A stretch of DNA of 64,000 nucleotides from Eledone cirrhosa (lineage: Eukaryota): assembly GCA_964016885.1 (NCBI GenBank), contig OZ024744.1, positions 39,370,001 to 39,434,000 of the forward strand, given 5' to 3'. This document shows positions 760 through 59,386 of this stretch, piece by piece. The translations under genes were made by a program, and so were the position numbers. The notes under the pieces were generated by a model, which saw only the letters and a list, made by a program, of their open reading frames with translations, did no database searches and was not told where the DNA came from. The stretch's first letter is position 1; the number at the start of each line of letters is the position of its first letter.

Positions 760-3260
760 GCAGTCACTCTAAATAAAATCTGATACAGGGTTGAGAGGAC
801 CTTTTAGTCTGGTAAGCCTCTTTAGTGATGGTGGCTTGAATGCACCCAATCCTTGCTGTAAAATGGTTGGTGATAGGAAGGGCATTCAGCCAGTAAAACT
901 TTGTCAAAACTATGCAAAGTACAACACATAAATCTCTCACTAATTATGTGTACAGGACTAACAGTAATCATGTAAGTGCTGTCCACATGATGTGGGGTGG
1001 CTAACTTAGCCATATGTGGGAACCTCTTGACCCTCATCAAGCAATTGTGCACTCTTATATTCCCTTTGAAGTACAAAGAACTACAAAAGGAACTAATCAC
1101 CATTACCAGGTAACTCATCTCAGAGCTGCTACACTCAATGTGATCACACTGAAAAGTAGATCAGGTAAAACTGTTGAGTTGCTTGAGCGGCAATGAGTGG
1201 GAGTTTTCTGTGTTGAAGGAGTGAGATGGAGAGGTGGTTTTGCATGACTTCTCACAGGCAAGCAGTGTAGATTCAAGCTCTTCTGGGTAGGTAATGATGA
1301 TGGGGTAGGTGGAGTAGGTAATCCACTAGCTGAGAAGTGGGTAGATCAGGTAATCAAAATAGAGTAAGTGGTCAAAGTGGTAAATTAGTCAAAGGCAATA
1401 GAACAACAACCATTATCTCTAGCTATGTACCACAAACAGACTAAATAAGGAACAAAAGGACTGCTTTTATGAACAACTTTTATAGACAACCTCAGTTACT
1501 GATGACAAAGACCTTATCATCCTAGCAGATGACTTCATATGACATGTTAGACAACACAGGAATGGCTACACTAGTGGCTATGGCTCAAGTAATGAAGAGG
1601 GAATGAGGCTCCTGGAATTCTGTAATACAAATGAACTAACCACTCGTAACACTAACTTCAAGAAACTGGTCAGCCACGTGGTCACCTACCAATCAGGTGA
1701 ACACAAAAGCCAGATTGACTTCTTACTTGTTAGAAAATTAGATAGACAGATTGTTAGAAACATTAAATCCTTCCCCAGAGAAGAAAGAACTGCCCAACAT
1801 AAGTTAGTTATTAGTGACATCAGAATAAGTACAAGACAGAAGAGATGCTGGAAAACCTGGAGGAAGAGAGTTTGGAAGCTAAAGGTTCTTCCTGTTAATT
1901 ATAGGTTCAGAAAAGCTTTACTTGAGGCATATGATAAAGAAGATGAGTTCGACACATATGACATAGAGGACAATTGGAAGTTCCCACATGACAACCTATA
2001 ACAGACTATTGAAGAGACTTTCAGCCAGACAGGGGATGACCTGGTGGTGGATCAGTACAGTAGATATAGCCATTAAAGCTAAGAGACAGGGCATGGAAAG
2101 ACTGGAAAAATGGGGCAGCAGAGACTGGTATTAGGTTGCTAAAAGAGAGGCTAGGCAACAGGTATACATAGTATGAAAAGAGACTGAAAGAAGATGTGCC
2201 ACTATCTTGCAACATGAAGATCAGAGGTGTGAAGTGTTCCACATTGCAAGGCAGTATGTCTGTATAAATCAAGATATTGTTGGGTAAGTGTTTGAAATGA
2301 CACTGGTGCACTTAGCATCACTGATATTCAAAAGAAAGAGACCTAGAAATGCCACTATGAGAGTTTAATGAATGTGGAGAATGAATAAGGGAAAGGGAGA
2401 TTAACCACAACTGACACAACAGAAGGACCAACTATTGAAATTGACAGCTATAGGGTCAAAGAAGCAATCAAGGAGATGGAAAACATCTTAGGTAGTTACT
2501 GAGGTGCTGAAAGCATCTGGGAAAGAGGAGTTGAACTAATCACCAACATAGTCAATCAGATAATACAGGTTGGGGACATACCCAGTGACTGGTGTAGCAG
2601 CATAATCATTAATTGCTACAAGGGTAAAGGTGATGTTCTAGGAGCAATTACTGAAGAATAAAACTAATGGATGAAAATATGAAAGCAACAGAAAGAGTTC
2701 TAGCACAACTAATTTTTTTTTTTTTTTAAACACTTTAGTCTTTATTGTGTTGTATCAGATGAAAGAAGGGAGAGGGTCAAACTAGAAGAAATGCAATTTG
2801 GTTTTATGCCAAGGAGGAGCACCACAGATGCCCTCTTTTAGTAATACAACTACAAGAGAAGTTCTTAGCCAAGAGTAAGCCTCTATATCTGGTGGTCATC
2901 TGGTGGTCCTCAAGGAAACTAGGTGTAGAAGAATGGTCTGTAAGAGCAACGCAAGCCATGTACAGAGGAGCTGTAAAGTGAGACTAGGAAATGAGTTTAG
3001 TGAGGAATTCAAGGTATGAGTTCATTTATTAGCCCACTTCTGTTTATCTTAGTCTTCCAGACCAAAACAGAGGGGTTTAAGACTGGTTGCTCATGGAAAC
3101 TCCTGCATGCCGAATCTGTGGAAGAACTAGAGAAAATATTCCAGCTGTGGAAACAAAAACTTTGAATCAAAAGGACTGACAGGAAAATTAGCACCAAAAT
3201 GTTAATAAGAAGGAAAGAAGATAGGGCACCAATCTTACCAGGGAAGTAGGCTTGCTCAAT
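760..3260 (+). mobile_element. Old, decayed RTE-clade LINE (putative 5' UTR, APE, RT; 3' end missing)
   Basis: Broken frames give ATLNVITLKSRSG, RLLEFCNTNEL..NTNFKK..SQIDFLLVR and FKTGCSW. The GGTTGGTG..AGGAAGGGCAT motif lies upstream of the ORF (~865-895). Confidence 0.85.
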
Positions 3261-4578
3261 ATGGAATGTTCTTCCACAGATTCAGCTATGAGGACCAGAT
3301 CATCGGCATGCAGGAGTTCCCATGAGCAACCAGTCTTAAACCCCTCTGTTATGGTCTGGAGGACTAGGATAAAATATACAGTGACTGATCAGCCTGATTT
3401 GAATATTAGCAAACTGCCTCATCAATCAGATCTGCATATTGACAGACCTACTGATCAGCCAGACTTGCATATCAGCAAATAGGCCAGTCAGTTTCATGTA
3501 TACAAGCGATTAATAGCTGGCTTTGTGATAAACTATTTGTATACATACACACACACACATATATACATATACATATGTACACATGGGTTGTAGGCTGTTA
3601 CTATTCATGTTTGCTGTTCAGGCTAGATCTCTCTTCTATTTTGTATATGACCTCTGTAATTTGTCTAAGAGTTGAGGGGGCTTACAGAATGTGTGACAAA
3701 AGAAGTTTGATGAACTTTGGATGCTGGCACACTTCTTAATATAAATCGAAGATTATAGGTAAAAAGTAAAAAGTAAAAAGTACAAGGTTATATTTGAAGA
3801 TTTCTTTTTTTTTAATCCGACAGAATAAATATTTTAATAATAGTTACATTAAATGGATTTAGATTTTGTTAAATATTACCTGTTTGGATTGGTAAGTCAA
3901 TCTCATCAAATATAAAAAATATTTGTTCTCACATTTATAAATTTTCTGTCAAAATTTCTTCATATATATACCCTCCCCTCCTCTCAAGTGTGAAACTAAA
4001 AACCATATCATTTGTACTGCCTCTCTCTTTTTTGTTCTCTGTTCATTTATTAAACTATATATATATATATCACAGAAAAAAGAGAATCAGTGTTGCAACG
4101 AAAGGAATTTATTGGACATATTACAAATGTCACGGGTGACCAGCTCGAGGCACGATCGATGTCATGATCACACCTGACTCTGAAATCAACATGGTTGTCA
4201 GATACGACTCGATTTTATTAAGCAGATTTTCCTATAGTCCTTTAACATCAAATTCTTTCATTTGTTGATTTAGATCCTGTTGTTGTCATTCCATGAGTGG
4301 TCAATAATTGTGCCCGTCATCGGTATTTCTAGCCACTCATTGTTGCCCACTTCTTTCTTCCTCTCGTTCTCCACCTGTCAATCCAAATTACTTCATGTAT
4401 CAGAATTACTACTGTGGTGGGAAAGGGGCTGTAATCTTGAACAGCTGACATCACTTCGACGTCTTCATTGACCCTAGGCGCCTTAGTCTACGTCGGTCAG
4501 GTACACACCCGCAATTATGCTGTATGCGGCATTCATCATAAATAATGTTTTACGGGAATTTAAAAAAAAAAAATCATG

Positions 4579-5159
4579 TGTATATTTAGCATAACATTTG
4601 TAGGACACAGCCTTAGGATACACTCCGCCATACATATTTAGCGTACCATTAGTAGGACACGGCCTTAGGATACACTCCGCCATACATATTTAGCATACCA
4701 TTAGTAGGACACGGCCTTAGGATACACTCCGCCATACATATTTAGCGTACCATTAGTAGGACACGGCCTTAGGATACACTCCGCCATACATATTTAGCAT
4801 AACATTTGTAGGACACAGCCTTAGGATACACTCCGCCATACATATTTAGCATAACATTTGTAGGACACAGCCTTAGGATACCCCTCACCATACATATTTA
4901 GCATAACATTTGTAGGACACAGCCTTAGGATACACTCCGCCATACATATTTAGCATAACATTTGTAGGACACAGCCTTAGGATACACTCCGCCATACATA
5001 TTTAGCATAACATTTGTAGGACACAGCCTTAGGATACCCTCCTCCATACATATTTAGCATAACATTTGTAGGACACGGCCTTAGGATACACTCCGCCATA
5101 CATATTTAGCGTAACATTAGTAGGACACGGCCTTAGGATACACTCCGCCATACATATTT
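4579..5159. repeat. 52-bp minisatellite, about 11 copies, two interspersed variants
   Basis: Unit tatttagcataacatttgtaggacacagccttaggatacactccgccataca, with a variant gcgtaccattagtaggacacggcc. Confidence 0.95.
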
Positions 5160-17671: not shown

Positions 17672-17818
17672 GGAATGATGTCAAAGAAAGGTACTCGTGT
17701 TGCAACGTGGAAGGAGAGATATTTTGTGTTGAAACCAGAATGTTTGTTGTATTACACAGCACCAGACCAAAGAGAAATGAAAGGTTCCATCGACATTAAC
17801 AAATCATGTGTTGTTGTG
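17672..17818 (+). CDS. Internal exon of a host PH-domain gene, SWAP70/DEF6-like (N-terminal half of PH)
   Basis: Pyrimidine tract + AG acceptor (17670-71) and GTAAG donor (17819). 147 nt, phase 0/0, translating GMMSKKGTRVATWKERYFVLKPECLLYYTAPDQREMKGSIDINKSCVVV. This resembles SWAP70 GYMMKKG..NWTERWFVLKP..YY..KKGDILLDENCCVE (recalled from memory). Confidence 0.85.
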
Positions 17819-18209
17819 GTAAGTTTTGTCAATCAAACTGACACTTAACCAAACTCATTTTCATACTAAAACCCAACTGAGAATGCCTGACTATGGCCTT
17901 ATGGTATGAAACTAACCATTTCAAAGTGTTCATATTAACCCTTTCATTATCATATATGTAATGAAAGTCTCTATCTATGATCTTCAAATAATTTGGCAAA
18001 TAATCAGGAATTTGGCGGTATTTAGTAATATAACTACTTATTGCATAATTAAGCTGAGGTTTAGAACATAACTCAAATAAGGTTCTGACATAAAATTATG
18101 GTGAAAGGTGTTTAGATAAATACAAACACTTAAAATCAAGCAGTTTTATATCACGGAAGCAGGATTGATTTCAGGTGGTTTGGTATAAAAAATGTTAATA
18201 TTGAACTGA

Positions 18210-18791: not shown

Positions 18792-18891
18792 CCCATGGTA
18801 GAAAAAACTTGTAGATTTATAATAAGGACCAAAATAAAAGATTATGAGTTGAATGTCAGTGATATGAAGTCAAAGAATGAATGGATTACAG
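18792..18891 (+). CDS. Next exon of the same PH-domain gene (C-terminal half of PH)
   Basis: ttttttgcag acceptor and GTAAGT donor; 100 nt, in frame with the previous exon. Translates PMVEKTCRFIIRTKIKDYELNVSDMKSKNEWIT, with the conserved PH C-terminal helix Trp (cf. SWAP70 KCLF..KTFEISASDKKKKQEWI). Confidence 0.85.
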
Positions 18892-19075
18892 GTAAGTATT
18901 CTAATAAATATTTGTAAATCATGTATATACCTTGTTATTATGACGGCACTGTATTGTTGAATTATACTTTAGACTATCTATCTATTTTCCACATACACTC
19001 TCTCTCACACTATTATTTCTCTTTCAAAAAGAGTGACTTTTCACACAGATATGTCGAGGGAAAGAAAAGAGGAGG

Positions 19076-19792: not shown

Positions 19793-19823
<31 letters not shown>

Positions 19824-19906
19824 CATACATATATACATATATATATATACATACATATATACATATATACATATATATATATACATACATATATACATAT
19901 ATATAT
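19276..19906. repeat. (TA)n/(TACA)n compound microsatellite
   Basis: Seen directly. Confidence 1.
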
Positions 19907-22900
19907 CATCATCATCATCACCGTTTTACGTCCGTTCTTCCACGCTAGCATGGGTTAGACGGGTTGTCCTGTTGTGGGCAGTGTCTGGTCGGCTGACCAT
20001 GCCTTGCTCATACAGGAACTGATCTGGCTCGATTTCTACAGCTGGATGCCCTTCCTAACACCAACCTCATTTACAGTGAGTGCTGGGTGCTTTTTCGTGG
20101 CGCCTATACGTCCACTTTACAGTGTGGGCTGGGTGCTTTCTTGCCGTGGCACCTCCACGACCACCTTGCGGTGGGGGGAGTGGGGGCATATTGTTTATAT
20201 GCTTCAGCATGTACCCATGGGAGGTCGGGTACCCTGTATTACTGCGTGACACCAGAAGTCACGGTCGTGTGTCATTGACTTTGAGAGGTGTAGTTGGGTA
20301 AGGTCGGCTTTTATCACCTCATCCTAAGTCATCTTGGGTCTCCCCACTCCGCGGTTTCCATCAACTTCTAGTGCTCTGCACCTTTTTATGCAGCTGTCAT
20401 CCTTCATACGCATCACATGTCCATACCAGCGTAACCGCCTCTCCTGCACGCAGCATTTGATTCCTCTTATGCTCAGTCTCTCTCTCAATTCCTTTATGCT
20501 TTGTCGTTCACGTATATTACTGTTACACATCCATCGGAGCATGCAGGCTTCGTTTCTCTCTAATCTACGTAAGTCTTCCACCTTCAGCGCCCAGGTCTCA
20601 CTACCATGCAACATCGCTGTTCGGATACACGCATCATACAGTCTGCCTTTCATTCTGACGGAGAAGCCTTTTGCAGCTAGCAGTGGTAGTAGTTCCCTAA
20701 ACTTCTTCCATCCCGTTCTTACCCTAGTTATTGTACTTTCTAAGCACCCACCTCTGTTGCTAATTCGGTCACCTAGGTAGCAGAAGCTGTCTACTGTTTC
20801 TACCGGGCCCTCCCAGAGATTGGTGGTACTTGTTTCCTGTGGCTGTTTGCTGCTTGCTGTCCCAGCACAGCTGCTGCATGTGAAGCCTACATTCTTAATT
20901 AAGCTTCCTGAGATCCCGCTACATCTCTTGTGTACCCATTGTTTGCATTTGGGGCAGAGAATGGAGTTCCTACCTACACCTTTCCTACATACTGAGCAAG
21001 GCCATTTCCCTGAGGGGATCTGGGTTCTGTTTTCTCGTCTACTTACAAGGACCTTAGTCTTTGTCATGTTGACTTTGAGGCCCTTTCTCTCTAGTCCCTG
21101 CTTCCAGGTTTGGAATTTATTCTCTAGTTCTACCATAGATTCAGCTATGAGTGCGAGGTCATCAGCATACAGGAGTTCCCATGGGCATCCGGTCTTAAAC
21201 TCCTCCGTTATTGCCTGCAGGACTATGATGAACAGGAGAGGGCTAAGAACAGAGCCCTGGTGGACCCCAACCTGTACGCTAAATTCCTCGCTATACTCAT
21301 TGCTAATCCTAACTTTGCTGACTGCTCCTCTATACATGGCTTGTACCGCTTTCACAAGCCATTCATCTACTCCTAGTTTTCTAAGAGCCCACCAGATTAC
21401 TGCACGTGGAACTCTGTCAAAGGCTTTCTCAAGGTCGACAAATGCCAAGTAGAGTGGCTTACTTTTAGCTAGGTACTTTTCCTGTAATTGCCTCACAAGG
21501 AAGAGGGCATCAGTGGTGCCTTTCCCTGGTACAAACCCAAATTGCATCTCGTCTATATTCACCCGGTCCCTAATCAGCTGTGCTATAACTCTTTCTGTTA
21601 CTTTCATGACCTGGTCCATCAACTTTATACCTCTATAGTTTCCTCTATCTAGTGCATCGCCTTTACCTTTGTAGCAGTTGACAATGATGCTACTGCACCA
21701 ATCTTTTGGTATGGCCCCTTCTAGTATTACCTGGTTAACAATACGTGTGGTTATAGTGTGACCTACAGACCCAGATGCCTTCAGCATCTCGGCAGCTATA
21801 CCCGATGGACCGGTTGCCTTCCCTATCTTCATATCTCTGATTGCCTTACTTACTACGCTGCCGCTGACTTGTACTGCTGGTCCCTCTATAGGGTCTACGT
21901 GGGGTAGGGTCTCTTCTTCCCATGCATTCTCCTCATTTAGTAATCTATCATAATGACTCTTCCATGCATCTTTCTTCTCAGCACTTGTGAGGGCAAGCTC
22001 ACCTTTATCATTCCGGATACACTTCTCTCCAATGACATCACAACTATCTCTGACACACTGCCTCGCAATCTTGAATACCTCCTGTTTCTGGTCCTCACGT
22101 TGTAAAACATGCTTGAATTTTCTATCCTCTGCTTCCCTCCTAGCTAAGTATACTTGTCGCCTAGCTTCCCTCTTGGTCTCTATGTAATGTACCCTGCTCC
22201 CCCCGTTCTTCCATTCTTTCCATGCCTGTCTCTTGGCCTTGACTGCTTCATCTACCTTATTGTTCCACCACCAAGTCACTCTCCTCCTGCTTGAGGTCTT
22301 ACTCCAGCCACAAACCTCATCCGTCGCCTCTAGTAAGTTATTTTTTAGGAACTCCCAGTTCTCTTCTACGTTAAATGTCTCTATCTGTTCTTCTTTACTG
22401 TCGTAGGCGTTGAGTAAAATATCTTTAAATCTGTTACTGGTTGAGGGGACTTTCAGCTTCCAGATCTTTCTTCTCCAGGTTGGCCTCTGTTTCCGGGTTC
22501 GTCTAATTCTGACCGTGAGGTCGCTGACAACTAAGCTATGTTGGGATGTACATTCCTCACTAGGGAAGGCTTTTGTGTTTACGACCGTCCATCTGTCACG
22601 TCCTCTGATGAGGATAAAATCTAACTGACTAGAGTGCTCCCCTGATCTATAGGTGATCAGGTGGCTGTCGGGTTTTTTAAAGTTTGTGTTACATATCGAC
22701 ATGTCATTGGCGTCGCAGAATTCTAGAAGTCTGAATCCTTCCTCATTCCTTGTACCAACTCCATGGCCTCCATGTACTCTATTGAAGCCGTCGCAGTGTT
22801 TACCTACGTGTCCGTTAAAATCTCCTGCAATGATTAGGAAGTCCTTGTCGTCTGTTAGAGCAGTAGTGTGTATTAGGGACTCGTAAAACGTATCCTTAAG

Positions 22901-23750
22901 TTCGTCTGGCAGCCCCGATTGGGGTGCGTAAGCTGATATTATTGTGGTAATTGTCTTATTCAGGACTAGTCTGAGTTTAATGATTCTTGCATTTACCCTG
23001 TACACTGAGATTACTTTATCTACCCACTTGTCAGCTAATAGTATACCTACACCACCCATCCCATCGTCATTTCCCACCCAGAAAAATTTGTAGCACTGGC
23101 TTTTTCCTACAAGGACTCTAGCAGACCCTCCTCTCCATCTAGTCTCTTGCACACAGCATACATCAACTTCCTTTCGCTCTAGCATTTCTACGATTTCTCC
23201 TGCTCTTCCTTTCATTGAGCCTACATTGATGGTACCAACTCGGAGTTTTGGGCATTTGTCGACACTCGTAGGGAAGGGTCTCTGGGTTGGCACTTCACGT
23301 GGGTGCTTGGTAGCTCGCAGATTCATATTTCATCTATTGATTCAGAGTTGCTCAAATGTATTCTCAGCTCATCCATCCATAACGGTGGGAAAATTGAGGG
23401 CTAGAAGAACAGTGGTGGTGGGGTAATGGCAGGGTGTGTTGGGATGCGCCAGAGGAGGAGAGAGTTAGTTAGGCAGGTAGTAGCAGCAGCAGTGGAAATG
23501 GCATGCTAGGTTTGATTGGTCGAATAGACTATGGTGGTGTGTGGGGGTGGGGGGAGGGAACTTGTGAGGTAGGAAGTGAGGGTCGCATGGTAAATAACTG
23601 AGAGAGATACAATAGAATTAGAATACCGCATGGTAAATATCCAAGTTAATACTACATCAGTAAAATTAACAATAATAACGTCATGAAAAACTACTAAGAG
23701 AAACCCTCGAAAATTTATCGCTAATACAGCAGGGAACAAAATTAATCATT
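19907..23750 (-). mobile_element. Apparently full-length young RTE LINE, family A copy 1
   Basis: ~420-bp 5' leader, single ORF, ~300-bp 3' UTR, (GAT)n tail at 19907-19920. Embedded in TA/TACA microsatellite on both sides. Confidence 0.95.
20204..23326 (-). CDS. RTE-A ORF: APE endonuclease - RT with internal PHD finger; one premature stop at 20324
   Basis: 1000-aa open frame with GTINV..VQETRW, GDFNGH, SQH, AFVDLEKAFD, QGSVLSP and YADD. TAG at 20324 corresponds to TGG in copy A2, whose ORF runs 40 aa further (equivalent stop at 20204). Confidence 0.93.
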
Positions 23751-23751
23751 A

Positions 23752-23786
<35 letters not shown>

Positions 23787-23916
23787 CACATACATATATA
23801 CATATATATACATACATATATACATATATATACATACATATATACATATATATATTACATATATACATATATATATACATATATACATATATATATATAT
23901 ATACATACATATATAC

Positions 23917-23951
<35 letters not shown>

Positions 23952-24054
23952 CATACATATATACATATATATATATATACATACATATATACATATATAT
24001 ACATACATATATATATATACATACATATATACATATATATATATACATATATAC

Positions 24055-31540: not shown

Positions 31541-34500
31541 AGCCTTTCATGATGCCAACTCTTTTAGTTACCTCACACAACACACATGGATATGGTATAC
31601 CTATTTTAAAAACTGGAATACATACTGTTGAATGGTATACTACAATACTGTACTATACTGTCTTTGAATATGCTATGTCAAGTGGTGGTGTTGGTGGGGC
31701 AGGAGAATTATGACTGCAATGACTTTGACCATGCATAGGTTTACTTAATCAGAGTTAGCTTACAGTAGTAACTAATTCAATTATATATTAAATTTTGAAC
31801 TAAACTGAATTATACTATAAATTTGTATCTGAACATAACAGTACGGGCTTTATGTATCATTTTAAACAAGTGTAGCTTTAGTGAATTATTTATTTATATA
31901 TTTATTTATTTAATCTAATCATGTTATAAGTTTATAGCTATTTCTATTTTCAAATTTAGTGTTTATTTCATTATTTTGTCAGTAATGCACTGGGTAATTG
32001 CTGGCCTTGTGCCTAAAGTAGAAACAATTATTTTGTATAAAAACAAAAAAGTTTCAAGCAATAGAAATTATATTTTATTTTAGCTTTGTAACATTACCTG
32101 CTGTAAGCCACAATTTGAAAAATAGGTTTCTAAAATCACCTGCCACATGACAGGTAAAAATGGTTCTAGCTGAGAACTAATGATGAGTGTATGTCTTGTT
32201 GTTTAGTCCTAAGTCAATTCAAATCATGCAGACCTGAGATCAAACACATTCCAAATAACAGCTAAATCTCACAATCATCATCATTACTGTTTAGTATCCA
32301 TTTTTCCATGCTTGCATGGGTTAGACAAGGACTATGAATTTGACCAGTTATTTTACAGCTGGATGCCCTTCCTAACACCAACCATATTCACAGTGATGTT
32401 TGATTTTTTCTTATTTAAAAAAAAAAAAGATAGGTTGTTACTTAGGAAGATTTTGCTGTTAGTTCTAGTAAGTACTTCTAGTAACAACAAAAAGCCATGG
32501 TTCCCAAACTACATACCTTAGTACACTGGTGTGCAGCTAACAAACAAGATTCTATTTCGAAATGTGTAAAAACTACAAGTTGAAATGCATAATACAGTTC
32601 ATATACAACTGGCATAGTGGGGAAACAACTAAACTAAGAATGGAAACATTGTTTAAAAAACACCAACCACATGTTTCTCATTGATAACTTTGCTCCATTT
32701 ATTGACTAAAGAAGGAAGTACAAACAATTTTTTCTGTAATTTTAATTATATTTCTACTTTATGTTATGCTGATATGTATAAATACCTATTTTGAATAAAT
32801 TTTCAAATTTAGGTTCAAAGAAGAAAGTTTAAAATGCACCAACATATTTTTTACTTATTCTAACTTTCACTGTCAATAAAAATAGTTTGGGAATGACTGA
32901 CATAGAGGCTCTCTTCATCATCATCATCATTTACATGTGCTTTACTATGCTTGTATTGTCTCTATTTATATAACTGACAAAAGAGACAGTCTGTTAAGCT
33001 CACTTGCTGTAAACATTAACTACATAAAGAGTGATATATGTTTGTGTTTCACCAATATCAAATTCTCTACCACAATCTCCACTACAAAATAGATGGATAA
33101 ATAGCAACTAATCTTGTGTAACACACTCAGAGAATACATAATACTGTATATATTTATGTATAAGTCACATCCCTTTTTTCTGGACTTAAAAAACATCAAT
33201 TACTGATCCAAGAATATTATATCTAAATAGAGCAAAAGTGGTGAAAGCTGATCTCAGGATGTTGAACCTCACAAAGGAGATAAAAGAAATGCATCAAATG
33301 TGGAATGTTGTTTTGGAGATGACCTGTCCAACCCAGGTAAGCATGGAAAGCCCATAAAAAATTATGATGATGATAATGGTGGTAGTAGTGCTGTTGCTGG
33401 TAGTAATGATTGTGGTGGTGGTGGTGGTAGTGGTGGTGACTTACCAGTGTGATTTATAAATGAAAATATATTATATATTTGATAAAGCTACAGACAAACA
33501 ATAAGTAAATGGACCTTTCATGTCATTTTCTAAGATGAGGCTTCCACCTGTTCAGTCAACCGTACTGCTTACACATTGTATTAGCATGTATATGTAGATA
33601 GCTGAATATATGAAATGGTTAACATACATTTTGGAGGCTAAAAGATACATGGGTGTATATGAGGCACCCTTATTTTGAAGAAAAATAGTATTTAATATAC
33701 TGTTATTCTGTGTATAAGACAGAGGCAGATTTTTTTACAAGAAATCTGTTATTGACAACCTCCTAGTATTGGTGATCTACACAATAAATGCACACAGTAC
33801 ACTCTCTAAAGTGGTTGGTGATAGGAAAGGCATCTAGCTATGGAAAATCTGTCAGCAGGACTCTTCAGCTATGCCAAATGTGGCAACCTCCCTAGTGCTA
33901 GAGCTATGATGAAATAAATGTATTTAGTGGAGCACAGGATCATATGTCAGCAAGAAGAGAGGTCCCAGTGAGTTGAAGCAATCTATAGAGTGTGAGAACA
34001 TATGTGAGAAGCAGACCCCTGACTAATCTGAAAAGTCAGTAGCCCTGCTTGAGTGCTGACTGGTTTATGATAACCCATCCAACCCTTGCTAGCCAGGAAA
34101 ATAGATGTTAAACAATGATGATGATGGCAATAGTGATTATGTGTTTTATACACAGAAGAATGAAGTAATTCTCAAGCAGAATCATCATGACACAGTAAAA
34201 TAGTGTGATATGGCTAGTCCTTAGAGTTATAGATACTATTTATTTGTAGAGCAGTCAAATCTTACTCAAATCACATTATCGCTTTGAAAAAAAAAAGACA
34301 AGACATATTGCATAATGTTCTCCTAGGTACACTATATCTGGGAAAATATAGATGGGATGGTCACAGCTGGTATTGGTATATCTATGATTATGCTTTACTA
34401 GACTAAAAAACAAGGACATACACACAAAGATGGTATCTACATGGTCATTTGAACTGCAAGAAAGATCCTGCCCTCCATCCATGCAAGAAAATCTTTCAAA

Positions 34501-35067: not shown

Positions 35068-38000
35068 ATCATCATCATCATCATCGTTTAACGTCCATGT
35101 TCCACGCTTGCATGGGTTTGGACGGGAGTTTTCCCACTTGAGGCAAGAGTGGTTGTCTTGCTCGCATAGGACTGCCTGGCGGGTTTTCTACAGCTGGATG
35201 CCCTTCCTAACACCAACCACATTTAATGTGTGGGGCTGGGAGGTTTTTACTGTGTTGCCTACACGGCCACATTACAGCGTGGACTGTGTGTTTTTTGTCG
35301 TGACATCTACACGGTCTCATTTGTTTCGGCCTGGATGTTGTGGCACCAACATAACTTTACATTGAAAGGGGCGGTGTGGATGGAGTGGGGGTGGTGGGAC
35401 GGGGGAGTATTTTGTTAGAGATGCCTACTGACTGTAGTAGGTTTTACTTTGTATTTAGGTAAGGCGGGTCTTCTCTATTACTGAGTACCGCCAAAGGTCT
35501 CGGTCCAGTGACATTGTCTTGGAGAGGTGTAAGCGTGTGAGGTCGGAATTTATCAGCTCGTCCCAGGTTTTTCTGGGTCTGCCGACTCCGTGGCTACCAT
35601 CTATCTTTATTGCCCTGCACTTTGTTATACAGCTGTCGTCTTTCATGCGCATCACGTGACCAATCCAACGTAGCCTTCTCTCGAGTAAACAACATCTGAT
35701 CCCTCTTATTTCTAATTTTTCCCTTAGTTCGTTTATGCTTTGCCGTTCACGTATATTACTATTACACATCCAGCGGAGCATGCAAGCTTCGTTCCTCTCT
35801 AGTCTGCGTATATCCTCTGCACACAATGCCCAGGTCTCACTGCCATGCAGCATTGCTGTTCGTATGCAGGCATCATACAACCTGCCTTTCATTTTTAGGG
35901 AGAACCCTTTAGCGGCTAATCGTGGTATAAGCTCTCTGAACTTTTTCCATCCAGTTCTGACTCTAGCTACTGTACTTTCAGAGCACCCTCCCCCACTGCT
36001 GATTTTGTCACCCAGGTAACGGAAGCTGTCCACTATTTCTATAGAACCCTCTGCGCAATTGAAAGAGCTAGTATTTTGTGAGCACTTGCTGCTACTTATT
36101 GCACCAGAGCACCAGCCACATGTAAAATCTATGTTCTTAGTTAGCTTACCTGTGATCCCACTACATCTTTTATGCACCCATACTTTGCATTTGGGACATA
36201 AAATGGAGTTTCTACCTATGTCTTTCCTACACACTGAGCATGGCCATTTCCCGGAAGGGACCGCCGCCTTATTTTCTTTCCTACAAACTAGAACTTTAGT
36301 CTTAGCCAGGTTAATTTTAAGGCCTTTTGATTCTAGGCCGTGCTTCCATGTTTGGAATTTCTTCTCTAGCTCGGTCATTGATTCAGCTATGAGCGTTAGA
36401 TCATCTGCATATAGGAGTTCCCATGGGCAGCCGGTCTTGAACTCCTCTGTTATAGCCTAAAGGGCAATAATAAATAGTAGGGGGCTGAGAACAGAGCCCT
36501 GATGGACACCAACTTTTACGCTAAACTCTTCACTATATTCGTTGTTAATTCTAACCTTGCTGACTGTTTCTTTATACATGGCTTGTATAGCTCTCACAAG
36601 CCATTCGTCAACACCTAGTTTTCTAAGAGCCCACCAGATAATGGAACGGGGGACTCTGTCGAAGGCTTTCTCCAAGTCAACAAAAGCTAAGTATAGGGGT
36701 TTACTTTTAGCTAGGTACTTCTCCTGTAGTTGTCGTACAATGAAAAGAGCGTCTGTGGTACTTTTGCCTGACACAAACCCGAACTGCATTTCATCTAGAT
36801 CAATTCTCTCTCTGATTAGCTGCGCTATTACTTTTTCCGTGACCTTCATGACCTGGTCGATTAATTTAATGCCTCTATAGTTACACCTATCTAGGGCATC
36901 TCCTTTACCCTTGTAACAGTTAATGATGATGCTGCTATGCCAGTCCTTCGGAACAACCCCATTCTGTATGACTTGGTTTACTATCCGGGTGACCATGGTG
37001 TGTCCCACTGTTCCAGAGGCTTTCAGCATCTCAGCAACTATTTCCGAAGGCCCAGCCACCTTACCTGTCTTCATATCTTTGATTGCCTTACTTATTATAC
37101 TACCTTCACCTAACACTGCTGGTCCCTCTATTGGGTCGATGTGGGGGAGACTGTCTTTCTCCCATTTGTTCTCCTCATTTAGAAGCCTTTCTTAGGGACA
37201 CTTCCAAGCTACCTTCTTATCAGCGTCAGTGATGGCAAGTACGCCATCATCATTAAGTACACACTTCTCCCCGACAATATCACGGTTTTCCTTGACACAT
37301 TGCCTAGCAATCCTGAACACCTCATGTTTTTGGTCCTCACGTTGTAGAACATGCTTGAACTTTCTTTCCTCTGCTTCCCTTCTTACAAAGTACACTTGTC
37401 TCCTAGCTTCCCTCCTGGCCACTTGGTAGTCTTCTCTACTTCCCCCATCCCGCCATACTTTCCAAGCCTGCTTTTTGGCCTTAATTGACTCCTCCACCTT
37501 ACTGTTCCACCACCATGTTACTCTCCTCCTACCTACAGGCCTGCTCCAACCACCGACTTCGTCTGTCGCCATCAGCAGGTTTGCTTTCAGAAATTCCCAC
37601 TCTCCCTCTATATTGTCCGACTCTAAATGCTCTTCCTTACTGTCGAAAGCATCAAGTAATATGCTTTGAAATTTATTTCTGGCTGTGGGGTCCTTTAGCT
37701 TCCATATTTTTCTCCTGAAGATAGTCCTATTCTGCTGTCTAGTACGTCTCGTCTTGACTATGAGGTCGCTAATTATCAGTCTATGTTGGGAGGTGCATTC
37801 TTCATGGGGGAGGGATTTAGTGTTAACAACAGACACTCTGTCATGTCTTCTGGTAAGGATATAATCTACCTGGCTTGTGTGTTCCCCCGATCTATAGGTG
37901 ATCAAGTGATTGTCTCGTTTTTTGAAGTTAGTGTTACAGATAGTTAGGTTATTTGCATCACAGAATTCCAGGATTCTGGAGCTTTCCTCATTTCTAGTAC

Positions 38001-38900
38001 CGAACCCATAGCCTCCATGGATTCCGTCATAGCCGTCACAATGTTGTCCAACGTGACCATTCAGGTCGCCTGCAATAATTATATAGTCACTGTCGGTTAT
38101 TTGGGAGGTAGCGAGCATCAGTGTCTCATAGAATCTGTCTTTTATAGTGCCGGGCAGTCCGGATTGGGGTGCGTACGCAGATATTACTGTCACCGTAGTT
38201 CTATTGAGGACAAGTCTTATTTTAATTATTCTGTCGTTCACTCTATTTACGTTTATTATCTTATCTGCCCACTTTTCTGCTACCATGATTCCTACTCCAC
38301 CCAGCCCGTTGTCATTTCCCACCCAGAAAAGCTTATAGCATCGTTTTTTACCCTCAATGAATCTAGCAGACCCACCCCTCCACCTGGACTCTTGAATACA
38401 ATAAACATCGACCCCCTTACATTCAAGCATTTCTACAACCTCGTTAGAGCGACCCTTTAAGGTGCCTACATTCATGGTACCAACTCTGAAGTTTGGGATT
38501 GCGTTTGGAGGTTGGGAGCGGTGGGGTGCGGGGGGGGGGGGGGGGGGGGGTATGTTAGCCATCCACGGCCGAAACAAGGAGGAGGAGTGCTTGCATTCTC
38601 GTCCATGAGGTGAATTTGTCTTTATCTTTGGCATTGTCGCTGAGTGTCCAGATTTTTCTCTCTTCAACTCTCCAGAATTCCGTAGTCCATCCATCATATC
38701 GAAAGGCAACCAGTTAAGCGATAGTATGGGCCTCTGACTTATGATTGGTCCACGTAATAATGGTGGTGCGTGGGGGCGGGAGGGATGGTGGTGCGTGGGG
38801 GCGGGAGGGAGGGATGTTGGATAGTTAGCGAGAAGGTAATGTTTTAAATAAGATCCCCGTATTTTGGGCATAATTTAACAATAAATGAAAATACAAGATT
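35068..38900 (-). mobile_element. Near full-length RTE family B copy 1; ORF (38871/38642 to 35455) broken by stops at ~37192 and ~36457
   Basis: Three collinear frames (APE; RT; PHD + C-terminus ending EKTRLT*), ~370-bp 3' UTR, (GAT)n tail, microsatellite flanks. Confidence 0.95.
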
Positions 38901-38967: not shown

Positions 38968-39251
38968 ATTCTCAGACCGGGTGATGTGTTGTTTCCTTGA
39001 GCAAGACACTTTATTTCACATTGCTCCAGTTTACTCAGCTGTAGAAATGAGATGATAGGGACTGGGGTCTCTATCATTCCACCTCAAAGTGGACGTGTAG
39101 GTGCCATGGCAAAAAATCACCCAGCACTCTCTGTAAATGAGGTTGGTGTTAGGAAGGGCATCCAGCTGTAGAAATCAAGCCAGAATCAGTTCCCGTCCCA
39201 CCCTTGCAAGTAGGGAAAAGCGGACGTAAAATGATGATGATGATGATGATG
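38965..39251 (+). mobile_element. 5'-truncated SINE (CORE + RTE-derived parts + RTE-D tail)
   Basis: ccttgagcaagacactt CORE-like block, aggaagggcatccagctg, cccgtcccacccttgcaag..cggacgtaaaat(gat)n. Confidence 0.9.
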
Positions 39252-40167: not shown

Positions 40168-42676
40168 ATCATCATCATCATCATCACCGTTTTACGTCCG
40201 TTCTTCCACGCTAGCATGGGTTAGACGGGTTGTCCTGTTGTGGGCAGTGTCTGGTCGGCTGACCATGCCTTGCTCATACAGGAACTGATCTGGCTTGATT
40301 TCTACAGCTGGATGCCCTTCCTAACACCAACCTCATTTACAGTGAGTGCTGGGTGCTTTTTCGTGGCGCCTACACGTCCACTTTACAGTGTGGGCTGGGT
40401 GCTTTTTTGCCGTGGCACCTCCACGACCACCTTGCGGTGGGGGGGGGGGGGGCATATTGTTTATATGCTTCAGCATGTACCCATGGGAGGTCGGGTACCC
40501 TGTATTACTGCGTGACGCCAGAAGTCACGGTCGTGTGTCATTGACTTTGAGAGGTGTAGTTGGGTAAGGTCGGCTTTTATCACCTCATCCCAAGTCATCT
40601 TGGGTCTCCCCACTCCGCGGTTTCCATCAACTTCTAGTGCTCTGCACCTTTTTATGCAGCTGTCATCCTTCATACGCATCACATGTCCATACCAGCGTAA
40701 CCGCCTCTCCTGCACGCAGCATTTGATTCCTCTTATGCTCAGTCTCTCTCTCAATTCATTTATGCTTTGTCGTTCACGTATATTACTGTTACACATCCAT
40801 CGGAGCATGCAGGCTTCGTTTCTCTCTAATCTACGTAAGTCTTCCACCTTCAGCGCCCAGGTCTCACTACCATGCAACATCGCTGTTCGGATACACGCAT
40901 CATACAGTCTGCCTTTCATTCTGAGGGAGAAGCCTTTTGCAGCTAGCAGTGGTAGTAGTTCCCTAAACTTCTTCCATCCCGTTCTTACCCTAGTTATTGT
41001 ACTTTCTGAGCACCCACCTCCGTTGCTAATTCGGTCACCTAGGTAGCAGAAGCTGTCTACTGTTTCTACAGGGCCCTCCCAGAGATTGGTGGTACTTGTT
41101 TCCTGTGGCTGTTTGCTTGCTGTTTCAGCACAGCTGCTGCATGTGAATCCTACATTCTTAATTAAGCTTCCTGAGATCCCGCTACATCTCTTGTGTACCC
41201 ATTGTTTGCATTTGGGGCAGAGAATGGAGTTCCTACCTACACCTTTCCTACATACTGAGCAAGGCCATTTCCCTGAGGGGATCTGGGTTCTGTTTTCTCG
41301 TCTACTTATAAGGACCTTAGTCTTTGTCATGTTGACTTTGAGGCCCTTTCTCTCTAGTCCCTGCTTCCAGGTTTGGAATTTATTCTCTAGTTCTACCATA
41401 GATTCAGCTATGAGTGCGAGGTCATCAGCATACAGGAGTTCCCATGGGCATCCGGTCTTAAACTCCTCCGTTATTGCCTGCAGGACTATGATGAACAGGA
41501 GAGGGCTAAGAACAGAGCCCTGGTGGACCCCAACCTGTACGCTAAATTCCTCGCTATACTCATTGCCAATCCTAACTTTGCTGACTGCTCCCCTATACAT
41601 GGCTTGTACCGCTTTCACAAGCCATTCATCTACTCCTAGTTTTCTAAGAGCCCACCAGATTACTGCACGTGGAACTCTGTCAAAGGCTTTCTCAAGGTCG
41701 ACAAATGCCAAGTAGAGTGGCTTACTTTTAGCTAGGTACTTTTCCTGTAATTGCCTCACAAGGAAGAGCGCATCAGTGGTGCCTTTCCCTGGAACAAACC
41801 CAAATTGCATCTCGTCTATATTCACCCGGTCCCTAATCAGCTGTGCTATAACTCTTTCTGTTACTTTCATGACCTGGTCCATCAACTTTATACCTCTATA
41901 GTTTCCTCTATCTAGTGCATCGCCTTTACCTTTGTAGCAGTTGACAATGATGCTACTGCACCAATCTTTTGGTATGGCCCCCTCTAGTATTACCTGGTTA
42001 GCGATACGTGTGGTTATAGTGTGACCTACAGACCCAGATGCCTTCAGCATCTCGGCAGCTATACCCGATGGACCGGTTGCCTTCCCTATCTTCATATCTC
42101 TGATTGCCTTACTTACTACGCTGCCGCTGACTTGTACTGCTGGTCCCTCTATAGGGTCTACGTGGGGTAGGGTCTCTTCTTCCCATGCATTCTCCTCATT
42201 TAGTAATCTATCATAATGACTCTTCCATGCATCTTTCTTCTCAGCACTTGTGAGGGCAAGCTCACCTTTATCATTCCGGATACACTTCTCTCCAATGACA
42301 TCACAACTATCTCTGACACACTGCCTCGCAATCTTGAATACCTCCTGTTTCTGGTCCTCACGTTGTAAAACATGCTTGAATTTTCTATCCTCTGCTTCCC
42401 TCCTAGCTAAGTATACTTGTCGCCTAGCTTCCCTCTTGGTCTCTATGTAATGTACCCTGCTCCCCCCGTTCTTCCATTCTTTCCATGCCTGTCTCTTGGC
42501 CTTGACTGCTTCATCTACCTTATTGTTCCACCACCAAGTCACTCTCCTCCTGCTTGAGGTCTTACTCCAGCCACAAACCTCATCCGTCGCCTCTAGTAAG
42601 TTATTTTTTAGGAACTCCCAGTTCTCTTCTACGTTAAATGTCTCTATCTGTTCTTCTTTACTGTCGTAGGCGTTGA
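40168..42676 (-). mobile_element. RTE family A copy 2, 5'-truncated; uninterrupted RT-PHD frame ending at 40470
   Basis: Near identical to copy A1 from NAYDSKEEQ to the tail; microsatellite on both sides. Confidence 0.95.
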
Positions 42677-44071: not shown

Positions 44072-44282
44072 AACTATATTAGAAAGAGTCGGGGCCCGAC
44101 GGCTGAGCTCCTGCCATTTCAACAGCTAATTCCAGACTTTTCAGGTGCCAAGAAATCCCAGTGTGGAAACAATGAGAACTCAGATGTTGGGCTCTAACTC
44201 ATTCTAATATAGTCACACTCTACTAGCCCAAGTATTGAGTACTCTGTTGAATAATGGTCTAACTAGTTTAATACTGGTTTAA

Positions 44283-44637
44283 TCATCATCATCATTTTAC
44301 GTCCGCTTTTCCCTGCTTGCAAGGGTGGGACGGGAACTGATTCTGGCTTGATTTCTACAGCTGGATGCCCTTCCTAACACCAACCTCATTTACAGTGAAT
44401 GCTGGGTGCTTTTTTGCTGTGGCACCTGCATGACCATTTTACAGTGAGTGCAGGGTGCTTTTTGGCCGTGGCACCTGCACGATCACTTTGCAGTAGAATG
44501 ATAGGGACCCCAGTCCCTATCATCTCATTTCTACAGCTGAGTAAACTGGAGCAATGTGAAATAAAGTGTCTTGCTCAAGGAAACAACACATCACCTGGTC
44601 TGAGAATTGAACTCACAACCTTTCGATTGCAAGGCCA
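44283..44637 (-). mobile_element. Young SINE, head slightly truncated
   Basis: Reverse complement of the 45260-45610 SINE family. Confidence 0.9.
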
Positions 44638-44663
44638 AAATCAAATAATCAGATCTATATATA

Positions 44664-45259: not shown

Positions 45260-45610
45260 ATGGCTTAGTGGTTATAGCATTGGCCTTGCAATCGAAAGGT
45301 TGTGAGTTCAATTCACAGACCGGGTGATGTGTTGTTTCCTTGAGCAAGACACTTTATTTCACATTGCTCCAGTTTACTCAGCTGTAGAAATGAGATGATA
45401 GGACTAGGGTCCCTATCATTCCACTGCAAAGTGGAAAAAAGCACCCAGCCCACACTGTAGGCGCCACGAAAAAAAAAAGCACCCAGCACTCACAGTAAAT
45501 GAGGTTGGTGTTAGGAAGGGCATCCAGCTGTAGAAATCAAGCCAGAATCAGTTCCCGTCCCACCCTTGCAAGCAGGGAAAAGCGGACGTAAAATGATGAT
45601 GATGATGATG
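45260..45610 (+). mobile_element. Full-length SINE: tRNA head - CORE - RTE-derived motif - RTE-D 3' tail
   Basis: A box tggcttagtgg and B box gagttcaattc; CORE-like ccttgagcaagacactt. The final cccgtcccacccttgcaagcagggaaaagcggacgtaaaat(gat)n is identical to 58374-58435. Confidence 0.92.
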
Positions 45611-45996: not shown

Positions 45997-46825
45997 GTAT
46001 TTTTTTTACTCTGATATTTAATTTATTGATTTTTCAATATCCTTTTATTGAGTGCCTCATGCAAAGCTTCCGAAGATTGTTCTTTCAAGAGATGCTGTAA
46101 TTTTTACTAACTTTCTTTGTTACACACATTTCTTCTTAGCTTCGTACGGACATGTAATAACACACACACACACACATACTTACGCACATGCACAAGTATA
46201 GATCTTTTTACAAAACGTTTTTTTTTTTTTGCATTTCCGGTAGACGGGCTTCATCATCCACTTTTTTTTAATAAATCATACCCAAAACGCCAGCAACAAC
46301 AGTTTTTGCAAGGGATGTTAACATGAATGGACCTGTTATTTTTATCTAAAGACATTTTTTCTAATTCCAACCCACCCGTCCCCTCAATCTATCTTATTTC
46401 TCATTCTTTCTTCTGATGAAGGACTAGCGTCCGAAAGGGTAAGACGCTCTTCTGCTATATCAAGCGTTAACCTAATATATCCTTTCCATATACTGTACCA
46501 ATTGTGTTGTTATTTCTGTTTACCTTTTACATACATATATATATATATATATTTACACACATACATACTTACATATATGTATATACATTGTCATCGTTTA
46601 AGTGGACGTTAAACAATCTTGATGATGATGATAATTGTTTCTACTTTTGGCACAAGGCTAGTATTAGTACTTTATTTTATCGACCCCGTAAGGATGAAAG
46701 GCAAAGTTAACCTTGGCGGGATTTGAACTCAGAATGGCAAGGACCGTAACTCTATGCATCAAAGCATGGCGTCCGACCCTCTACCGTTGATGCCAATCTA
46801 CCGATGATGATAATAATTTCATTTT

Positions 46826-47057
46826 CATTTTACGTCCGCTTTTTCCCTGCTTGCAAGGGTGGGACGGGAACTGATTTTGGCTTGATTTCTACAGCTGGAT
46901 GCCCTTCCTAACACCAACCTCATTTACAGTGAGTGCTGGGTGCTTTTTTGCCATGACACCTCCACGACCACTTTGCAGTGGAATGATATGGACCCCAGTC
47001 CCTATCATCTCATTTCTACAGCTGAGTAAACTGGAGCAATGTGAAATAAAGTGTCTC
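46826..47057 (-). mobile_element. Truncated copy of the same young SINE
   Basis: ttttacgtccgctttt..ggatgcccttcctaacacc..gagtaaactggagcaatgtgaaataaagtgtc. Confidence 0.9.
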
Positions 47058-53454: not shown

Positions 53455-54489
53455 ATTATGCCAGTTCCTTTTCTGCATATCGAACATGGCCATTTCCCTG
53501 ACGGAATCAGGGTTTTGTCCTCTTTTCTACTCATCAACACTTTTGTCTTAGCTAGATTTACTCTCAGTCCTCTTGCTTCCAACTGCTGTTTCCATAGCCG
53601 GAATTTATTCTCTAGCTCCTCTACTGATTCTGCCATAAGAGCCAGATCGTCAGCATAGAGAAGTTCCCATGGACAGCCAGTCTTAAACTCCTCTGTTATG
53701 GCTTGGAGGACTATAATGAACAAGAGCGGGCTGAGGACCGAACCCTGATGTACTCCTACTTGTATCTGGAATTCCTCACTAAACTCCATTCCTACCCTGA
53801 CTTTACTGAGAGTACCTCTGTACAAAGTTTGCACTGTCCTCACAAGCCATTCCTCAACACCCAGCTTCCTTAGGGACCACCAGATGACAGATCGGGGTAC
53901 CCTATCAAAGGCCTTCTCTAGGTCAACAAAGGCTAAGTATAGTGGCTTATTCTTCTCTAAGAACCTCTCTTGCATTTGTCTCACCAAGAAGAGGGCATCT
54001 GTTGTACTCTTCCCAGGCACAAAACCAAACTGCATCTCATCTAGTTTGACCCTTTCTCTAATTAGTTGTGCTAAAATCCTTTCTGCCACTTTCATAACCT
54101 GATCTATCAGTTTTATACCCCTATAATTGCTCCTCTCCAAAGCATCCCCTTTACCTTTGTAGCAATTTATGAGAATACTGCTGCACCAGTCTTTGGGTAT
54201 GACACCACCAAATATAGCCTGATTGATGATGCGTGCAACCAGTTTAGTGCCTACGTCCCCTGATGCCTTCAGCATCTCAGCAACTATTCCCGATGGTCCG
54301 GCCGCCTTACCATTTTTCATTTCCCTAATCGCCTCTTGGACCCTATATTCGTCAATCTCTATAGCTGGTCCCTCTGTCGGATCTACCAAGGGTAATTTCT
54401 CTCTCTCCCATTCGTTCTCCACATTCATCAGTCTCTCTCATGACATTTCCAGGCCTCCTTTTTCTGGTCATTCGTGACACTAAGTACAC

Positions 54490-54740: not shown

Positions 54741-56525
54741 GAGAGAGAATTGATCTCGATGAAATGCAGTTCGGGTTTGTGTCATGCAAAAGTACCACAG
54801 ACGCTCTTTTCATTGTACGACAGCTACAGGAGAAGTACCTAGCTAAAAGTAAACCCCTCTACTTAGCTTTTGTCAACTTGGAGAAATCCTTCGACAGAGT
54901 CCCCCGTTCCATTATCTGGTGGGCTCTTAGAAAACTAGGTGTTGACGAATGGCTTGTGAGAGCTATACAAGCCATGTATAAAGAAACAGTCAGCAAGGTT
55001 AGAATTAACAACGAATATAGTGAAGAGTTGAGCGTAAAAGTTGGCGTCCATCAGGGCTCTGTTCTCAGCCCCCTACTATTTATTATTGCCCTTCAGGCTA
55101 TAACAGTGGAGTTCAAGACCGGTTGCCCATGGGAACTCCTATACGCAGATGACCTAACACTCATAGCTGAATCAATGGCCGAGCTAGAGAAGAAATTCCA
55201 AACATGGAAGCACGGCCGAGAATCAAAAGGCCTTAAATTAACCTGGCTAAGACTAAAGTTCTAGTTTGTAAGAAAGAAAATAAGGCAGCGGTCCCTTCCG
55301 GGAAGTGGCCATGCTCAGTGTGAAGGAAAGGCGTAGGTAGAAACTTCATTTTGTGTCCCAAATGCAAAGTATGGGTGCATAAAAGATGTAGTGGGATCAC
55401 AGGTAAGCTATCTAAGAACATAGATTTTACATGTGGCCAGTGCTCTGGTGCAATAAGTAGCAGCAAGTGCCCACAAAATACTAGCTCTTTCAACTGCGCA
55501 GAGGGTTCTATAGGAATAGTGGACAGCTTCCGTTACCTGGGTGACAAAATCAGCAGTGGGGAAGGGTGCTCTGAAAGTACAGTAGCTAGAGTCAGAACTG
55601 GATGGAAAAAGTTCAGAGAGCTTATACCACTATTAGCCGCAAAAGGGTTCTCCCTAAAAATGAAAGGCAGGTTGTATGATGCCTGCATACGACCAGCAAT
55701 GTTGCATGGCAGTGAGACCTGGGCATTGTCTGCAGAGGATATACGCAGACTAGAGAGAAACGAAGCCTGCATGCTCCGCTGGATGTGTAATAGTAATATA
55801 CGTGAACGGCAAAGCATAAACGAACTAAGAAAAAATTAGAAATAAGAGGGATCAGATGTTGTTTACTCGAGAGAAGGCTACGTTGGTATGGACACGTGAT
55901 GCGCATGAAGGACGATAGCTGTATAACAAAGTGCAGGGCAATAAAGATAGACGGTAGCCACGGAATAGGCAGACCCAGAAAAACCTGGGACGAGCTGATA
56001 AATTCCGACCTCACACACTTACACCTCACGAAGACAATGTCACTGGACCGAGACCTTTGGCGGTACTCAGTAATAGAGAAGACCCACCTTACCTAAATAC
56101 AAAGTAAAACCTACTACAGTCAGTAGGCATCTCTAACAAAACACACCCCCGTCCCACCACCCCCACCCCATCCACACCGCTCCTTTCAATGTAAAATTAT
56201 GTTGGTGCCACAACATCCAGGCCGAAACAAATGAGATCGTGTAGGTGTCACGTCAAAAAACACACAGTTCACGCTGTAATGTGGCCGTGTAGGCAACACG
56301 GTAAAAACCTCCCAGCGCCACAGTGTAAATGTGGTTGGTGTTAGGAAGGGCATCCAGCTGCAGAAAACCCGCCAGACAGTCCATGCTGTAATGTGGCCGT
56401 GTAGGCAACATGGTAAAAACCTCCCAGCCCCACACTGTAAATGTGGTTGGTGTTAGGAAGGGCATCCAGCTGTAGAAAACCCGCCAGACAGTCCACGCTG
56501 TAATGTGGCCGAGTAGGCAACACGG
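54741..56525 (+). mobile_element. 5'-truncated RTE-B with a multiplied 3' UTR module and no tail of its own
   Basis: [18 protein letters not shown]. The module gctgtaatgtggcc..aggaagggcatccagctg..ccgccagacagtcca is repeated ~2.3 times. Confidence 0.92.
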
Positions 56526-58848: not shown

Positions 58849-59386
58849 GTATATATATATATGTATACATGTATATATATATATGTATATATGTATATAT
58901 ATATATGTATATGTATATATATATATGTATATATGTATATATATATATGTATATGTATATATATATATATGTATATGTATATATATATATGTATATGTAT
59001 ATATGTATATGTATATATGTACATCATCATCATCATCATCATCAGGTTTAGCGTCCGTGTTCCACGCTTGCATGGGTTTGGACGGGGGTTTTCCCACTTG
59101 AGGCAAGAGTGGTTGTCTTGCTCGCATAGGACTGTCTGGCGGGTTTTCTACAGTTGGATGCCCTTCCTAACACCAACCACATTTACAGTGTGGGGCTGGG
59201 AGGTTTTTACCGTGTTGCCTACACGGCCACATTACAGCGTGGACTGTCTGGCGGGTTTTCTACAGCTGGATGCCCTTCCTAACACCAACCACATTTACAG
59301 TGTGGGGCTGGGAGGTTTTTACCGTGTTGCCTACACGGCCACATTTACAGCGTGGACTGTGTGTTTTTTGTCGTGACACCTACACA
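58447..59386 (-). mobile_element. Two short RTE-B 3' end insertions (58447-58588, 59023-59386) separated by TA microsatellite
   Basis: Both match the 35068-35310 tail; the second has a duplicated module. Confidence 0.9.

Follow-up and report, generated by a model that had tools for sequence, protein, structure and literature searches.

Relocation of a conserved leader signal in a lineage of RTE-type LINEs by gain of a bipartite 3′ cassette

Some of the RTE-type LINEs at this locus carry, downstream of their open reading frame (ORF), a sequence block that others carry in the leader, which raises the questions of where the block originally stood and by what route it reached its second place. 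The window, i.e., the whole 64,000-nt stretch of DNA analyzed, contains the RTE-type LINE families A, B, and D and an old element, C. Copy A1 of family A occupies 19907–23329 on the minus strand, with an RTE-type ORF (APE endonuclease and RT) at 20204–23326, which has an early stop in this copy, and a leader at 23327–23750, which is composed of a partial array of A monomers and a proximal part and lacks the block. Past the ORF end, two 49-nt units follow on the same strand: unit 1 (20164–20116), derived from a C/D-type 5′ UTR, and unit 2 (20115–20067), colinear with the 46 nt that precede the block in the D leader (score, 47; maximum of 300 shuffles, 26). Next come the relocated RTE leader block (20033–20066; 26 nt + 8 nt, the 26-nt block proper being 20066–20041), a spacer (19965–20032), a terminal RTE 3′ end (19921–19964), and a (GAT)n tail (19905–19920). 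The spacer is partly common to families A, A′, B, B′, and G, and past its first ~20 nt no counterpart was found in the C or D leaders. The second A copy, A2 (40173–42673, minus strand), is 99% identical to A1 and has the same 3′ module. Over the window, the block is matched 20 times with three or fewer mismatches, and not once in 100 shuffles. An old short piece at 32274–32396 (minus strand) lacks the A/B spacer and consists of the block, ~25 nt, and the 3′ end of an RTE, representing a minimal bipartite form. To the left of A1, exon-like pieces of a host gene (17674–17819 and 18793–18892, plus strand; PH-domain-like by eye) are found, and A1 probably lies antisense inside an intron of that gene.

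The elements of A, B, and D each have a single long ORF of 1022–1039 amino acids (1039 in intact A), predicted from sequence motifs and established knowledge to encode an N-terminal APE endonuclease followed by RT. Similarity and a tree with metagenome-contig outgroups assign the families to the RTE-clade LINEs, whose (GAT)n microsatellite tails and many 5′-truncated copies they share. As an earlier note on this DNA had described, the ORFs of A1, A2, and B1 stop before the 3′ UTR repeats, the block, and a second D-type end. The ORF end GTRPPMGTC that the note gave for family A is present in A2 and in 10 of 10 other A copies of the genome, the latter with the full ORF; in A1 itself a premature stop (20326–20324) private to this copy precedes it. 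All 10 of these copies have the block in the 3′ UTR and lack it in their common leader, and any other block sits in separate adjacent insertions. The A leader is an array of 410–635-bp monomers that extends up to ~3.7 kb (loci L034–L038 and L040), reminiscent of the monomers of rodent L1; the monomers hold internal repeats of 98 and 25 bp, also in the part present at 23327–23750. In A′, an older relative of A, the leaders of the full-length copies L182 and L305 are likewise without the block.

Family B shows the same 3′ order. In B1 (35068–38730; further B fragments occur in the window), the 3′ UTR at 35068–35460 on the minus strand contains a linker, the units, the block (35218–35193), a spacer, the terminal end, and the tail, with the spacer being B's own. 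The 3′ block was found in eight of 10 B copies, the other two being without it within the stretch taken, and the B leader, unlike A's in sequence, has no block in the 10 copies compared. A variant, "E", was rejected as a separate short element, since at L163 and L166 it is linked to the end of a B-related ORF. The B module (unit and block) also occurs as 112-bp tandem duplications at 56237–56526 and 59129–59380, and in seven consecutive copies at L295.

Elements D and C hold the block on the other side of the ORF. In D (56524–58412, with fragments elsewhere in the window), the ORF runs straight into the tail without a module (3′ end, 58374–58435, plus strand; ORF-to-tail stretch, 58374–58412). 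This organization, also reported in the earlier note, is found in 18 of 20 D loci of the genome, the remaining two being broken at the 3′ side. Nine of the 20 reach far enough upstream to be informative, and all nine carry the 49-nt unit and the block ~75 nt before the ATG. In old C (1119–3221), the block is located at 865–890 in the leader (780–890, plus strand), 5′ of the ORF; among 20 C loci of the genome, 16 have a block with up to six mismatches ~250 nt before the ORF, and a D-type end is found in six. Metagenome contigs were also scanned with a degenerate block, yielding 65 loci in a set that covers block-bearing elements only. Ten of these have RTE ORF hits: in six the ORF starts 210–320 nt downstream on the same strand, in two it is on the other strand, and in two an ORF ends upstream, with the tail of that element lying between it and the block. 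The four of these elements that are nearly full-length (43–49% amino acid identity to D), used as outgroup RTEs, end without the module. As D, C, and the six RTE-linked metagenome loci show it wherever 3′ ends are visible, the layout with the block in the leader and the ORF running into the tail is regarded as ancestral. The movement of a 5′ motif to the 3′ end, as the note had proposed, is thus upheld by D, C, and the outgroups, in which the block is 5′, and by its absence from the A and B leaders (10 copies each). Neither of the outcomes that the note named as refuting it was observed: the D loci that extend far enough do have the motif 5′ of the ORF, and the outgroup RTEs are without a 3′ module.

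Several features of these older elements were observed in passing. The D copies at L013, L014, L021, and L028 share up to ~2.8 kb upstream of window position 56530, and the D leader therefore reaches at least ~1.5 kb past the block and includes microsatellites. Two inverted D pieces (53456–54488, minus strand; 56602–57635, plus strand) are 99.5% identical; the B copy between them has had its 3′ module removed and is joined directly to D at 56524–56526. In old C, a short RT fragment is inverted after a break point (3043–3118 and 3268–3373). A tandem array of ~11 units of 52 bp is located at 4582–5159 of the window. Short elements composed of the same block and then an RTE-like 3′ end are present at loci from other animals (L098, L100, L142, and those of the L091 type).

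The position of the motif was then read on trees, constructed without redundant A, B, and D copies, copies with <110 amino acids of the C-terminal region, two long-branch rows, and one 3′-broken row. In the whole-ORF tree, A, A′, and B are grouped together (support, 100/100), as are C and D (100/100), with the outgroups outside both. In addition, the module was found downstream of the ORF in two older families, designated G and H. The ORF-end tree (470 nt) separates 21 module-bearing rows from 11 others across one branch, so that A, A′, B, B′, G, and H form one clade with a support (95/85) that is moderate, the 470-nt alignment including decayed copies. The module tree has the same shape, with a bootstrap not fully settled. 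Since all families with the 3′ module form this one clade, the relocation is older than the A/B ancestor, in which the note had placed it. Among 20 H-related loci (assigned by 76–83% identity to L224), 14 extend to the start of the ORF, and their leaders lack the block; a genome search for G leaders gave, among its best 40 places, mixed families and no G 5′ end.

The 3′ UTRs of G and H retain more of the ancestral leader than those of A and B. They match ~120 nt of the C leader (E-values down to 6e-25 with a 452-position profile of 15 C leaders; score, 74; shuffle maximum, 28), whereas A and B keep ~46 nt and the block. No likeness of G or H to the distal monomer part of the C leader was found among the rows listed, and what was captured comes from inside the leader rather than from its extreme 5′ end. 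The repeat unit of H differs from that of the other module families. A single locus, L214, combines an A′-type ORF end and units with an H-type module and terminus; its mixed composition suggests that tails are exchangeable between LINE families, or else it may represent an intermediate stage.

With the module, A and B possess two stretches that resemble the 3′ end of D. The earlier note regarded the terminal one as a non-coding "ghost" of the D-type ORF end. The likeness itself was recovered, with 19907–19955 of A1 matching the D-type tail on a SINE (45610–45562) at 83.7% identity over 49 nt (E = 3e-7); it covers only ~50 nt, which in D, C, and outgroup RTEs is the stretch across the stop codon. 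Another likeness to the D end, more decayed, was recognized by eye at the A/B stop codon itself, and 20187–20230 of A1 (minus strand), compared by eye with the C, D, and outgroup ends, is likely the decayed original 3′ end. Two short inverted repeats that mark the end of the ORF in D, C, and the outgroups are, again by eye, retained in the last 45 nt of A, B, G, and H, and the stop-codon stretch of A and B is a worn version of the same, clearest in G (L194 and L199), where a tail-like remnant follows. Because the tail follows the terminal copy in 10 of 10 A copies, and in every intact copy seen, this copy is likely the priming end. It is thus likely the terminal copy that acts as the working 3′ end for recognition, with the decayed copy, as judged by eye, at the stop codon.

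These results establish that, throughout this lineage, a conserved RTE leader signal has been relocated through the gain of a bipartite 3′ cassette, composed of an internal piece of an ancestral RTE 5′ UTR and a second RTE 3′ end. As for the route, we consider it reasonably probable that the cassette was gained once, in the ancestor of A, B, G, and H, from a bipartite C/D-like RTE that inserted behind the tail of an intact element. A deletion-shortened copy would have landed directly behind that tail, and read-through RNA would have been primed and reverse-transcribed from the new end, after which the old 3′ end, no longer used for priming, would have decayed. If the block works as a signal for RNP assembly or template recognition, its second copy would have freed the 5′ end for promoter swaps. 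The loss of the block from the leaders of A, A′, B, and H is itself observed. Later, a tRNA-headed SINE likely took up the module of an A/A′ 3′ UTR and joined it to the D tail.

The appended cassette indeed has a bipartite build, with a part derived from an RTE 5′ UTR and, after it, the 3′ terminus and tail of an RTE, and possible raw material for its capture was found in genome searches covering the best 40 places each. Among 30 loci retrieved with the C leader, 13 run on into the ORF start, two (L271 and L280) have the leader joined directly to the 3′ end, one (L264) has it joined across a microsatellite and is perhaps bipartite, and three show internal ORF deletions. At L079, a truncated G is inserted right behind the tail of an internally deleted C; other tail-stacked RTEs are found at L031, L173, L175, and L290, and at L142, from another animal, a short element headed by the block stands, by eye, right behind the end of an RTE. 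The C one-offs differ in their junctions and lack the module's own spacer, which counts against the capture. The non-autonomous bipartite donor assumed in the note is matched in the build of the cassette, but as candidates for such a donor only one-off deletion copies of C were found among the best 40 places per search. No amplified donor family having the module's spacer without an upstream ORF end was found among the best 40 places per search, and ORF-less module copies resemble 5′-truncated LINE ends. A random 200-kb sample contained six block matches, five of them in B-type 3′ ends or their fragments, and no free donor. An element with the block at both ends was likewise not found among the best 40 places; L083, L088, L077, and L079 were rejected as such, each being a C copy with a separate insertion. 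Seven of the 30 C leaders (L258, L260, L262, L263, L272, L282, and L285) lose family similarity ~22–35 nt past the block, about where the bipartite junctions and the leader likeness of G, H, A, and B also end, and this point is possibly a hot spot of breakage or template switching, or a product of search bias.

The same end product would be reached in one step, without a free-standing intermediate or a parasite, by a template switch during reverse transcription or by a deletion in a head-to-tail RTE pair. Such pairs are common (L031, L173, L175, and L290), and both the lack of an amplified donor family among the best 40 places per search and the internal position of the captured leader part fit this route. 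However, ready-made bipartite C copies occur at two to three of the 30 loci and at L079, so that the two-step route needs no rare event, and short elements of the block and a 3′ end are present in other animals as well (L098 and L100). We judge the one-step route to be rather unlikely, and keep to the insertion of a bipartite copy followed by read-through.

In its strongest version, the reading in the note would make a SINE the donor. A SINE at 44282–44638 (minus strand) is composed of a tRNA-like head, a body, an A/A′-type module, and a D-type tail, with further copies at 38971–39225 and 45280–45610 (plus strand) and 46819–47056 (minus strand). The head is called tRNA-like by eye, since ARAGORN found no tRNA gene in the window; the tail is identical to D 58374–58407 at 34 of 34 positions. 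A tRNA-headed SINE that lost its head, or was 5′-truncated, at insertion could have supplied the cassette, considering that a module-bearing SINE does exist and that the RTE leader parts of SINEs are, according to the accessible text of PMC5786205, mostly internal pieces, as here. Against this, the SINE module is most similar to that of A (identity, 0.96), followed by A′ (0.91), B (0.82), and H (0.73), and the modules of nine SINE copies are nested among A/A′ in the module tree, being neither older than nor basal to those borne by LINEs. The SINE copies are 96% alike, as compared with 75% for G and 81% for H. No remnant of a SINE head or CORE-like part was detected in the module spacers (three heads against eight spacers, 24 comparisons, 200 shuffles each), and the sole comparison above all 200 shuffles is the junction piece that the SINE shares with A′. 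On the basis of this nesting, the young and mutually alike copies, and the absence of any head remnant beyond the borrowed piece, the SINE is a recipient that likely took its module from an A/A′ 3′ UTR later and joined it to a D tail, and its role as donor is improbable. An ancestral 3′ module, or several independent moves, with C and D derived, is very improbable, and its ancestral version already largely refuted: G and H join A and B with moderate support only, H has a different repeat unit, and L214 mixes an A′-type ORF end with an H-type module, but the block is 5′, with no module behind the ORF, in four near full-length outgroups as well as in C and D, and the ORF and module trees agree.

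As to what the block does at its new site, A and B are identical at 120 of 279 four-fold sites (43%), as compared with 42–43 of the 45 nt around the block, which shows that the block is constrained at the 3′ site; the congruence of the ORF and module trees argues against recent homogenization. The block RNA is predicted to form a 6–7-bp hairpin (93.5% paired), with covariation not above that of shuffles (462 of 500 reach the score). Searches against Rfam gave no ribozyme at 19800–24000 of the window, only microsatellite-driven miRNA hits, and, in 16 metagenome loci, one weak twister-P1 match (L139:825–881; 41.3 bits, E = 6e-6, below the gathering score of 67.2), located directly before the block and not inside it. 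Since the block persists in leaders, downstream of a stop codon, and in SINEs that encode nothing, it may equally well be a position-independent RNA signal for the RTE protein as something else, with a ribosome-engaging or DNA-level role being the alternatives. A further reading, which we offer tentatively, is that a bipartite derivative rebuilt its master: with a position-independent binding signal for the RTE protein at the 3′ end, the ancestral leader would become dispensable and promoters could be swapped freely, and 5′-truncated copies would be two-signal templates that seed SINEs without internal deletion.

Why SINEs dependent on RTEs keep a piece of the LINE 5′ UTR is a matter on which the accessible text of PMC5786205 only speculates as to function. 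The present lineage represents a natural transplant, in which the piece has been kept nearly unchanged behind the ORF of active autonomous elements and lost in front of it, and this speaks against its serving solely in the choice of the start codon or as a 5′ promoter. Since one genome contains A and D elements that are young and intact, the question is testable. "Bipartite" SINEs can also arise by a second route, from the 3′ UTR of a LINE, and their presence is therefore not always a date for an internal deletion. If the tentative reading given above is correct, a putative compact 3′ cassette of ~200 nt would suffice for any RNA to serve as a template of the RTE protein. The templates of RTE-based gene writers include both UTRs (PMC13708176, accessible text), and should the signal prove position-independent, a natural 3′-only cassette would be of practical interest.

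Much of what is combined here is already known separately. Short elements have reportedly enlarged a master RTE before: BovB elements are said (a case attributed to Walsh et al. in 2013) to have acquired parts of SINEs or of CR1 at their termini. This would be a precedent for flow from a short element to a master RTE; it is not known to have involved a clade-wide loss of a leader motif. LINE 5′ UTRs are known to be switched, as in the monomer promoters of rodent L1. Another example is the plant SolRTE (bioRxiv 10.1101/2022.11.04.512097, accessible text), where, as in the present case with its tandem monomer leader in A, the body is kept and the leader replaced; in contrast, the 3′ end is conserved there, whereas here a leader motif has moved and the 3′ end is duplicated. 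For RTE-2_OV of Octopus vulgaris, the accessible text of PMC9115989 describes no module, relocation, or family comparison. In the accessible portions of PMC9115989, PMC13282606, PMC4758252, PMC13295347, PMC3747384, and PMC13708176, no 3′-UTR case is given, and in the literature accessible to the search, which extended to neither Repbase nor most subscription papers, no autonomous RTE was found whose 3′ UTR contains, as a fixed part, a module derived from a 5′ UTR.

The closest likeness is to the bipartite non-autonomous RTEs and RTE-derived SINEs (Bov-A/Bov-tA, RTESINE1/2, WALLSI, AfroSINE, and the 3′ half of Ceph-SINE; Kojima 2018, PMC5786205, accessible text), in which an internal 5′-UTR piece is joined to an RTE 3′ end. 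The core letters of the block have no text match in the accessible supplement of that article, whose domain alignments are figures. The same text reports RTE pieces entering the 5′ UTR of Ingi-3_AC and R4-1_ADi, with no 3′-UTR case, and tail exchange in SINEs, comparable to the present SINE with its A-type module and D tail. Bipartite RTE derivatives, tail exchange, and leader switching are thus already known (PMC5786205 and 10.1101/2022.11.04.512097, as far as their accessible texts go). Unlike the cases in PMC5786205, as described there, the cassette of the present lineage is the fixed 3′ UTR of autonomous, ORF-intact LINEs, and the piece it contains has been lost from their leader.
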